The notes under the pieces: model-generated | Told to the model about the DNA's origin: nothing | Databases searched by the model: none | What the model saw: only the letters and a program-made list of their open reading frames with translations | Assembly: GCA_039988235.1 (NCBI GenBank) | Contig: JBDXKB010000004.1 | Span: 185,643 to 249,642, forward strand | From: Erythrobacter sp. | Lineage (GTDB): Bacteria > Pseudomonadota > Alphaproteobacteria > Sphingomonadales > Sphingomonadaceae | Direction: 5' to 3' | Length of the DNA: 64,000 nt | In this document: positions 56,647-58,996 of the stretch, in pieces | Position numbering within the stretch: the stretch's first letter is position 1 | How the letters are laid out: each line of letters starts with the position of its first letter | Position numbers and translations under genes: made by a program

Positions 56647-56740
56647 AAAAGACTGGCTTCCTTGTCATTTCAATGATTGTTGAGCCTGTCAGTCAGTCAA
56701 GGTAATGACATCGCAACCTTCCCTCCCTATATCACTGCGC

Positions 56741-56812
56741 ATGGCACAGATGCTGACCAACGCGACCACCGCCACCACCTCGGTTTTCCGGGGGCGGTTG
56801 GTCACGCATTAG
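56741..56812 (+). CDS. Thr-rich leader peptide of thrS (23 aa)
   Basis: MAQMLTNATTATTSVFRGRLVTH: 5 of codons 6-13 are ACC (Thr). It sits directly upstream of thrS and just after a CTATAT -10-like element. Confidence 0.78.
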   Translation: MAQMLTNATTATTSVFRGRLVTH

Positions 56813-56866
56813 TCGCGAGACCCAGCCACCCCCGCCCGGTTTTGGGCCGGTTTCGGGTGGCTCTGG
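56762..56866 (+). promoter_or_regulatory. Attenuator-like alternative hairpins in the thrS leader
   Basis: Segment 56792-56803 can pair with the Thr codons or with CCGCCC at 56832-56837. A competing stem AGCCACCC (56824-31) / GGGTGGCT (56855-62) follows. Confidence 0.6.
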
Positions 56867-56968
56867 TGTCAGCCTCATCCGAAAAAGTGCAGAAGACATG
56901 ACACCGCCCTTCCGGCGCGGACCTGCTTGTGGCAGGGCGTCGGGCAAACAGACGGTATGAGACACGCA

Positions 56969-58996
56969 ATGACACAACTCCTCAAGATCAGCCTTCCCGA
57001 TGGCACTGTCCGCGAAGTGGAAGAAGGATCAACGCCTGCCGACATTGCGGCTGCGATCGGTCCGGGCCTTGCTAAGGCTGCGCTGGCGGCGCGTGTGGAC
57101 CATGGTTCGGGCGCGGAAGTGCGTGACATTAATCGTCCATTTGAGGGCGATGCTCAGCTGGAATTGATCACTTCGCGCGACGAGGAAGATGCGCTCGAGT
57201 TGGTTCGCCATGACTATGCGCATATTCTGGCAGAGGCGGTTCAGGCGCTTTGGCCGGGCACTCAAATCACCTTTGGTCCGGCGACCGATGACGGATTTTA
57301 CTATGACGTGATGGCACCAGCCGATCGCGATCCGTTCAGCATGGATGATTTGCCCGCAATCGAAGCCAAGATGCGCGAGATTATCGCGGCCGACAAACCG
57401 CTGGTGCGCGAGGTTTGGTCGCGCGAAGCTTTGATCGAAAAATGGTCGTCCGATGGCGAGGCGTTCAAGGCAGAATGGGCCAAGGAACTGCCCGAAAATG
57501 AAGAGCTGACCGTATATTGGTCGGGCGAACCTCGATCAGAAGGGGCGTGGCTCGATATGTGCCGCGGGCCCCATCTGGCTAGCACGGGAAAGCTTGATCC
57601 AGCCGCGTTCAAACTGTTGCGCGTGGCGGGCGCCTATTGGCGCGGCGATCAACGCAATGCTCAGCTGACGCGGATTTACGGCACCGGCTGGCTCAATAAG
57701 AAACAGCTCAAGCAGCATCTTCACAATCTGGAAGAGGCGGGCAAACGCGATCACCGCAAATTGGGCCGCGAGATGGAATTGTTCCACCTCCAGGAAGAGG
57801 CGCATGGCAGCGTTTTCTGGCACCCCAAGGGCTATATGATCTGGCGTGAGCTGGAGGCCTATATGCGCCGCGCGATTGACGAAGGCGGCTATCAAGAGGT
57901 CAAGACGCCTCAGGTGATCGATGCCAAGCAATGGGAGAAATCCGGCCATTGGGGCAAATATCGCGAGAACATGTTTGTCGTGCCGGACGAGGTGCCCAAC
58001 ACCGAGGATGAGGGCGAGGTTATCTCTGGCGATGCCGATTGGATGGCGATCAAGCCGATGAATTGCCCGGCCCATGTTCTGGTCTTTAAGCAGGGCATCA
58101 CATCCTATCGCGATCTGCCGCTGCGGATGTATGAAAACGGCTGCTGCCATCGCAATGAACCGCATGGCGCTCTGCATGGATTGATGCGTGTGCGCCAATT
58201 CACTCAGGATGATGCCCATATCTTCTGCACCGAAGATCAGATCATCGACGAGGTTCAGAAATTCTGCCAGCTGGCGGACCGGGTCTATAAGGACTTCGGC
58301 TTTACCTATAAAATCAAGCTCGCTTTGCGGCCTGAGCAACGCTTTGGCTCGGACGAGGATTGGGACAAAGCCGAATCCGAACTGCGCCAAGCGGTGGTGG
58401 ATGCTGGCATGGCTACGGAAGAATATGGTTGGGGCGAATTGCCCGGCGAAGGGGCATTTTATGCGCCCAAGCTGGAATGGCATTTGACCGACGCCATCGG
58501 GCGCACATGGCAGGTTGGAACGATCCAATCAGACCGGGTATTGCCCGAACGATTGGATGCGACCTATATTGGCGAAGACGGCGGACGGCATCGTCCGGTC
58601 ATGCTGCATCGGGCGATTTTCGGGTCATACGAACGCTTCATCGGCATTCTGATCGAGCATTTTGCCGGGCGTTTGCCAGTGTGGCTCGCGCCAGTGCAAG
58701 CGGTTGTCGCGCCGATTGTCACCGATGTTAATGGATATGCCAATCAGTTGGAGGCCAAGCTGAAAGCGGCTGGCATTCGGGTGGAAACCGATCTGCGCAA
58801 CGAGAAGATCAACTATAAGGTGCGCGAGCATAGCCTTGCCAAAGTCCCGCATTTGCTGGTTGTCGGCAAGCGCGAGGAAGATGAAGGCACCGTCGCCATG
58901 CGGACACTGGGCGAGAAGGAGCAGCGCGTCTTGTCGCTCGACGATGCGATTGCCTTCTTGACCGACGCAGCGACACCGCCGGATTTGAAAGGGTGA
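56969..58996 (+). CDS. thrS: Threonine--tRNA ligase
   Basis: TGS domain, [55 protein letters not shown]. Confidence 0.98.

Follow-up and report, generated by a model that had tools for sequence, protein, structure and literature searches.

A putative threonine leader peptide and competing RNA helices upstream of thrS in Erythrobacter and related genera

The thrS locus

The window analysed here is a 64,000-nucleotide stretch of the Erythrobacter sp. assembly GCA_039988235.1 (contig JBDXKB010000004.1, positions 185,643 to 249,642), and all coordinates are given within it. We identified one thrS gene, encoding threonine--tRNA ligase (ThrRS), at 56969-58996 on the plus strand (TIGR00418, 628.5 bits, cut-off 384); with a single match in the genome, thrS is single-copy. 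Upstream of it, on the same strand, lie a candidate promoter, a short open reading frame rich in threonine codons, a chain of helices of which several exclude one another, and a promoter-like segment that adjoins the gene.

Leader ORF and its promoter

The leader ORF occupies 56741-56812 on the plus strand. Its 23 codons run from the ATG at 56741 to a TAG at 56810-56812 and encode the peptide MAQMLTNATTATTSVFRGRLVTH. The Thr run (56756-56779) has ACC codons at 56756, 56765, 56768, 56774 and 56777, which amounts to five ACC codons within eight. The first-pass annotation of this DNA had reported such an ORF, and each of the positions it gave agrees with the sequence. If the interpretation offered below is correct, a functional ORF of 23 codons has been overlooked by gene callers. 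The ORF also contains a small hairpin, CCTCGG-TTTT-CCGGGG (56778-56793, plus strand), which is present in the MFE fold and has a counterpart in relatives, CCCGGA...UCCGGG, at the same place. This hairpin would be melted by a ribosome positioned in the Thr run.

The candidate promoter, P1 (56705-56733, plus strand), was assigned from its sequence and its conserved geometry, and is composed of a -35 box, ATGACA (56705-10), and a -10 box, CTATAT(C) (56727-33). The arrangement ATGACA-N16-CTATAT at 56705-56732 had likewise been described beforehand, with the suggestion that transcription starts at about the leader ATG, and it too is borne out. Between the end of the -10 box and the ATG there are 7-8 nt and no Shine-Dalgarno sequence. 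In 44 of 52 orthologues a scripted search returned a TGAC/TTGA box and a spacer of 16-17 nt, followed by a CTAT-type box whose end is 7-9 nt from the leader ATG; the remaining eight calls were artefacts of the script, the -10 box itself containing an ATG. An SD-like motif ahead of the leader ATG occurs in five of the 52. Given that essentially all loci have a CTAT-type -10 box 7-9 nt before the ATG and that SD-like motifs are few, the leaderless start appears to be a conserved design. The mRNA is probably leaderless, as had been suggested, with its start placed by a promoter geometry that is kept in about 50 orthologues.

Conservation and distribution of the leader

Conservation of the Thr codons among relatives had been set beforehand as a test of this reading. 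The codons are conserved: an ORF with a Thr run is found at the same place upstream of thrS in 29 of 30 genomes of the same genus (for example, MAKLLTTTTTTTTSDIRGRLVAA). Among 99 other genera of the family, sampled at one genome per genus, 23 have it. This is far more than chance would produce. The genera with the ORF are mostly those whose ThrRS is closest to that of Erythrobacter. No leader ORF was found in 20 genomes from other families of the order.

Across 52 orthologous loci the run comprises 4-11 Thr codons, with a median of seven. ACC is the most frequent (213 occurrences), followed by ACU (63), ACG (52) and ACA (24), so that the AC is nearly invariant and the third base varies, a pattern that points to selection on a translated Thr run. 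Because all four ACN codons are used, the run reads all of the tRNA(Thr) isoacceptors, which suits the sensing of ThrRS output. In 31 of 50 orthologues 33 nt separate the last Thr codon from the stop codon, and in 25 of 50 the same codon lies 13 nt ahead of the G-run in region 2 (described below). Both spacings are what would be expected if the footprint of the ribosome left region 2 just free.

A covariance model, R1, was built from 50 orthologues of the element. In the Erythrobacter genome R1 has one match, at 96 bits, and when 150 families of the class were searched, a strong match was obtained only in the representative of the same family. R1 also confirmed the element in Qipengyuania aquimaris, in an Alteraurantiacibacter metagenome-assembled genome (MAG) and in an uncultured Erythrobacter. 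There were 15 weak R1 matches outside the family; of the eight that were inspected, seven are ACN repeats inside genes and one is real (locus L156, discussed at the end of this paper). A DNA pattern scan of contigs proved too loose, its 120 matches being mostly due to chance in GC-rich genomes; of 14 loci checked against the model, three proved genuine. The element is single in its genome, and in every case thrS follows it directly and in the same orientation.

Two genomes of the same genus depart from this picture. The first, L013, has lost the leader entirely and retains a CTTCAA-N17-CCATGA segment, and the second, L018, retains the leader ORF and has a deletion that runs from the T hairpin to the F hairpin (both described below). 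Given these losses, the element must be dispensable. A search for further leader ORFs rich in Thr or His codons in the Erythrobacter genome returned three matches, all inside other genes, and so gave no second attenuator of the same genome with which to compare this one.

Competing helices in the leader

Region 2 (CCGGGGGCGGTTGGTC..., 56788-56807, plus strand) can pair either with the Thr-codon region (helix 1:2) or with region 3 (helix 2:3, the anti-hairpin), and region 3 can alternatively pair with region 4 (helix 3:4) to form what we call the T hairpin. T extends from 56824 to 56862 on the plus strand, with arms AGCCACCC (56824-31) and GGGTGGCT (56855-62), and was defined by folding and from 50 orthologues. 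The first-pass annotation had proposed that these three pairings exclude one another, citing GGGCGG at 56792-97 and CCGCCC at 56832-37 for 2:3, and both of these positions are confirmed. The further evidence supports its proposal. When the bases under a ribosome in the middle of the Thr run were masked before folding, region 2 (CCGGGGGCGG...) paired with region 3, and with the mask moved to the stop codon, region 3 paired with region 4, giving T. Under equilibrium folding, T is often the preferred structure even when the mask represents a stalled ribosome.

The T hairpin has a predicted energy of -23.8 kcal/mol in Erythrobacter and of -15 to -29 kcal/mol in the 50 orthologues. In its core 91% of cells are paired, and one covarying pair occurs as GC in 27 cases, AU in 13 and GU in eight. 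The lower stem of T, analysed column by column, is 63% paired, which equals the value for shuffles and lends it no support. Duplexes of 2:3 average -27.9 kcal/mol, against -24.7 kcal/mol for non-cognate partners and -21.5 kcal/mol for shuffled ones. T carries an inserted inner stem-loop, CCGCCCGG-TTTT-GGGCCGG (56832-56850), which is common only to the closest relative, L002. The insertion supplies a perfect CCGCCC partner for region 2; other relatives use the main 5' arm of T.

The single-sequence fold is weakly better than those of shuffles (z = -1.8), and since it is this near to them, support for the helices comes from the comparison with relatives. RNAalifold, applied to the whole leader, recovered only the core of 3:4 and a doubtful long-range helix, and for this reason the helices were defined by hand. 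In the comparative alignments, 2:3, 3:4 and the 4:5 and E helices described in the next section are supported relative to shuffles, slid registers or swapped partners.

Helices downstream of the T hairpin

Two pairings that had been overlooked in the first reading lie beyond T. In the first, 4:5 (56849-56885, plus strand), region 4, which consists of the T loop and 3' arm (GGTTTCGGGTGGCT, 56849-62), pairs with region 5 (AGCCTCATCCGAAAA, 56871-85). Its general form is GGUUUCGGG(U/C)GGC paired with a downstream CCUCCCGAAAUC, the T loop and 3' arm covarying with a C-rich downstream segment of the type CCUCCCGAAA. In the alignment 87% of 4:5 cells are paired, compared with 40-69% when the partner is slid, and there are 32 double-change cells, compared with 11 +/- 2.7 in shuffles (none of 500 reaches 32). 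The per-sequence duplexes range from -11 to -21 kcal/mol, and lineage-specific compensations include UACCGGG:CCCGGUA, GGUUCGGG:CCCGAACC and CGAAAGGG:CCCUUUCG. Covariation of the T loop with segment 5 is not needed in a simple terminator loop, which argues for 4:5 as a functional alternative to 3:4.

The second overlooked pairing is the E helix (56865-56905, plus strand), formed by 4' (GGTGTCA, 56865-71) together with region 6 (TGACACC, 56899-905), with region 5 in the loop. Its general form is GCGGYGU, immediately 3' of T, with ACRCCGC. In about 36 of 50 orthologues the best partner is found downstream at a constant distance of 21-26 nt, and the variants include GGUGU:ACACC, GGCGU:ACGCC, GGCGUCG:CGACGCC, GGCAUC:GAUGCC and GGUGUUGG:UCAACACC. 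E is compatible with T, and it could, speculatively, combine with 4:5 as an H-type pseudoknot.

The 5' arm of a further predicted hairpin, F (56904-56920, plus strand), overlaps region 6, so that F excludes E. The F loop contains an invariant CTT. Judged by eye, its stems differ by genus around this constant CUU, with CACCG/CGGUG, CCGGA/UCCGG, CCCC/GGGG and CAUC/GAUG among them.

In several genera segment 5 and its 5' flank (56871-56880 in Erythrobacter) read UCACCUCC(C), which is the same sequence as the 3' end of 16S rRNA, the anti-Shine-Dalgarno sequence. Region 4, the partner of segment 5, is correspondingly SD-like (GGGUGG). A second ORF, starting from a GUG in 4' and leading towards thrS, was considered and rejected, the indels among relatives not being multiples of three.

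The segment adjoining thrS

A conserved motif, CAAACAGACGG (56945-56955, plus strand; genus form CAAACGAGACGGA), is situated 14 nt upstream of the thrS ATG and is the probable ribosome-binding region of thrS, although a weak one. We found no conserved pairing partner for it.

Ahead of this motif is a promoter-like segment (56909-56941, plus strand) of conserved spacing, likewise overlooked in the first reading, consisting of CTTCCG (56909-14), 17 nt and GCAGGG (56932-37). It overlaps the G hairpin, CCTGC-TTGTG-GCAGG (56922-36, plus strand). A CTTNNN-N16-GCCATGG-like motif with identical spacing is present in 20 of the 23 leader-bearing genera. At the matching place, 17 of 76 genera that have no leader contain a promoter-like motif of the form TTGNNN-N16-18, which in 13 of these is TTGNNN-N17-GCATAAG. 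Given the matching motif in leader-less genera, the attenuator module has seemingly been placed upstream of an ancestral thrS promoter. On this view the old promoter may still be present as P2, a weak internal promoter for basal expression of thrS; should P2 instead be the main promoter, only some of the transcription of thrS would come under the switch.

Several further features of this segment were observed. Among the loci compared (L074, L086, L096, L098 and others), it corresponds in position to TTGCCC-N17-GCATAAG, the promoter of genera that have no leader. The G hairpin, as RNA CCUGC-UUGUG-GCAGG, resembles the anticodon arm of tRNA(Thr)(UGU) from the same genome, CCUGA-UUUGUAA-UCAGG. Relative L024 has a perfect palindromic insertion of about 110 nt between the G hairpin and thrS.

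Proposed mechanism

The leader probably controls thrS by way of its peptide, as a ribosome-mediated sensor of how much tRNA(Thr) is charged. In this mechanism the transcript from P1 would start at or next to the leader AUG, and a ribosome would load on the leaderless mRNA. When Thr-tRNA(Thr) is plentiful, the ribosome would reach the stop codon and cover region 2, leaving region 3 to pair with region 4 as the T hairpin. In this low-expression state, with T formed, the C-rich segment 5 would be single-stranded. When Thr-tRNA(Thr) is scarce, the ribosome would stall in the Thr run, at least 13 nt upstream of region 2, and region 2 could then capture region 3. In the resulting high-expression state the freed region 4 would pair with segment 5, and 4' could pair with region 6, displacing F. 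We infer translation of the ORF, stalling within it and the direction in which the switch operates. In the model, the two states are distinguished by segment 5, which is single-stranded in one and paired in the other, and by the choice between E and F.

The leader poses the question of how a conserved, covarying switch acts without a terminator or contact with the ribosome site of the gene that it precedes. The roughly 50 natural sequence variants that are available can guide mutagenesis.

Read-out of the switch

Rho-dependent termination on the exposed stretch from segment 5 to region 6, as in mgtA, corA and tna, is the leading candidate for the read-out and the most economical one, although we would put it at somewhat below an even chance. 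The genome has a rho gene (676 bits), and in nearly all orthologues the most C-rich and G-poor 60-nt window starts right after T. The C/G ratio there ranges from 1.2 to 3.0, with most values at 1.5-2.2. In Erythrobacter it is 1.5, which falls in the top 12.5% of the windows of the genome and is a modest bias; the Rho step is therefore weak. According to equilibrium folding, the exposure of segment 5 changes little between the states, from 0.61 to 0.50.

More tentatively, the read-out may involve no intrinsic terminator and no masking of the ribosome-binding site (RBS). On stalling, refolding of the 3' half of T to 4:5, possibly as a pseudoknot with E, may hide the single-stranded, C-rich stretch resembling the anti-Shine-Dalgarno sequence from Rho or from a ribonuclease. 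The module would then have been inserted ahead of the old thrS promoter, and this promoter would survive as an internal basal one.

The T hairpin could itself be a terminator, either factor-assisted or acting as a hairpin alone, despite having no U-tract. It is a strong GC hairpin located exactly where the 3:4 terminator of a classical attenuator is found, and the same picture is seen in Streptomyces lividans thrL (PMC8079986). The tail that follows it is CTGGTGTCAGCCTCATCC, and a terminator scan found none at T. All 50 orthologues have U(U)CCUCCC at this point and none has a U-tract, in keeping with the earlier remark that no poly-U follows 3:4; the tail is kept for pairing with region 4 and not for richness in U. 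To our knowledge, the purified RNA polymerases tested so far require a U-tract, and ordinary U-tract terminators are in use in this same genome, which has 254 sites with a hairpin and a U-tract, compared with 103 in a block-shuffled genome. We consider this explanation unlikely.

Equally unlikely, in our estimation, is control by RNA decay, in which formation of T would leave segment 5 and the spacer after it open to RNase E, and 4:5 and E would protect them. The exposure of segment 5 is just what differs between the states, and the spacer is A/U-rich within a GC-rich leader and has hairpins on both sides. However, we found no conserved cleavage motif in it, and the sequence of the spacer is not conserved.

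The first-pass annotation had also raised translational coupling as a possible outcome of stalling. In such translational attenuation, the stalled ribosome would remodel the leader and unmask the RBS of thrS. Several features would suit it: there is no terminator, the leaderless layout is like that of the mycobacterial poly-Cys short ORFs (bioRxiv 10.1101/834739), the chain of alternative helices extends towards thrS, and there is a weak trend for the RBS to be more open when 4 and 4' are free (19 sequences vs 7). Against it, the leader stop codon is 112-169 nt from the thrS ATG, and three tests failed. The predicted accessibility of the RBS (-14 to +6) is 0.44 in the free leader, 0.45 in the stalled state and 0.45 with the ribosome at the stop codon (Wilcoxon p = 0.79, 0.93), and is 0.48 vs 0.51 when the two states are forced. 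A single pairing with the GAGACGG motif recurs, at -10.85 kcal/mol for cognate and non-cognate partners alike, and shuffled partners do better. In these folding models the switch has no link to the ribosome site of thrS; we rejected a translational read-out on these grounds, and regard this form of attenuation as improbable.

We likewise give little credence to autoregulation of the E. coli type, in which a hairpin close to the thrS start would mimic the anticodon arm of tRNA(Thr) and bind ThrRS, either alone or together with the leader. The resemblance of the G hairpin to the tRNA(Thr)(UGU) arm would be in line with such a role, as would the persistence of the G-hairpin segment in relatives that lack the leader. 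An NGU-type loop, however, occurs in only 13 of 50 orthologues, which makes an operator like that of E. coli unlikely as a conserved function; in addition, the register of the stem is not alignable, and the same segment has a fixed, promoter-like spacing.

It is very improbable that the ORF is a gene in its own right, for a small protein or a small RNA, with thrS no more than its neighbor, as the conserved C-terminal RGR motif and the promoter-like segment between ORF and thrS might suggest. The RGR codons belong to the G-run from which 1:2 and 2:3 are made, conservation is limited to Thr identity and the RNA pairings, and the element never occurs apart from thrS.

Relationship to known regulatory systems

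In E. coli, ThrRS binds to an operator in its own mRNA that mimics the anticodon arm, and the Firmicutes use Thr T-boxes. The Erythrobacter leader has the same gene and the same physiological aim as these systems, but its sensor would be different: no T-box was matched, and the resemblance to the anticodon arm is not conserved. If the proposed mechanism is correct, this would be a third solution to the control of thrS, with the ribosome sensing Thr-tRNA directly, conserved across the group of Erythrobacter, Qipengyuania and Alteraurantiacibacter.

The closest classical attenuator is E. coli pheM-pheST, which likewise regulates a synthetase; thrL-thrABC, trpL and hisL belong to the same class. 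The Erythrobacter leader shares with them a short ORF of cognate codons, competition among 1:2, 2:3 and 3:4, and the geometry of the ribosome footprint, and in the proposed logic, as in theirs, scarcity of charged tRNA leads to more enzyme. Unlike the classical attenuators, its 3:4 hairpin has no U-tract, its ORF has no Shine-Dalgarno sequence, the mRNA being probably leaderless, and the covarying 4:5 and E helices and F follow downstream; there is no sequence or Rfam relationship. An Rfam scan of the leader with permissive E-values, which included Thr_leader, T-box and riboswitch families, gave best scores of 12-19 bits, far below gathering, and to unrelated families. Among attenuators on synthetase genes, pheST is established, and those of Streptomyces trpS and leuS were predicted (PMC1262725). 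We found no description in the literature of a Thr leader on an alphaproteobacterial thrS; Lopatovskaya et al. 2010 (Mol Biol 44:128) may list thrS attenuators.

A similar arrangement has been described for thrL-thrS of S. lividans, which is leaderless and has two Thr codons and no U-rich terminator (PMC8079986). There, as in Erythrobacter, a leaderless short ORF precedes thrS and is followed by a hairpin that has no U-rich tail. The two differ in that S. lividans belongs to another phylum, its thrL has only two Thr codons and there is no sequence relationship; that study did not analyse the conservation or the switch helices of thrL. The mycobacterial leaderless poly-Cys short ORFs act on translation, the stall opening a duplex that hides the next RBS (bioRxiv 10.1101/834739). 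They resemble the Erythrobacter leader in having a cognate-codon ORF, probably leaderless in our case, and no terminator, but an RBS-hiding duplex is not detectable in the Erythrobacter leader.

A further group for comparison consists of Rho-dependent leader-peptide attenuators. Translation of the leader exposes or hides a C-rich segment in tnaC-tnaAB, mgtL-mgtA and corL-corA, and the outcome depends on Rho. The proposed Erythrobacter mechanism would resemble these systems, which are reviewed in PMC12360218, in making a choice of RNA structure that bears on a C-rich segment, and there is no intrinsic terminator in either. It would differ from them in its signal, the charging of Thr-tRNA, in its modest C bias and in a role of Rho that is putative.

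Another candidate Thr leader is found outside the family, in an alphaproteobacterial genus of a different order. In all 17 of the genomes of this genus, an ORF of 35-51 codons precedes yidD-thrS (L156, at about 1500-1760 on the minus strand, and L161-L177). It is led by a Shine-Dalgarno sequence and has a Thr-rich end, for example ...ALTTTTTLTITGSA. The ORF is absent from 13 loci of a sister genus. It has the appearance of an independent Thr leader of thrS.
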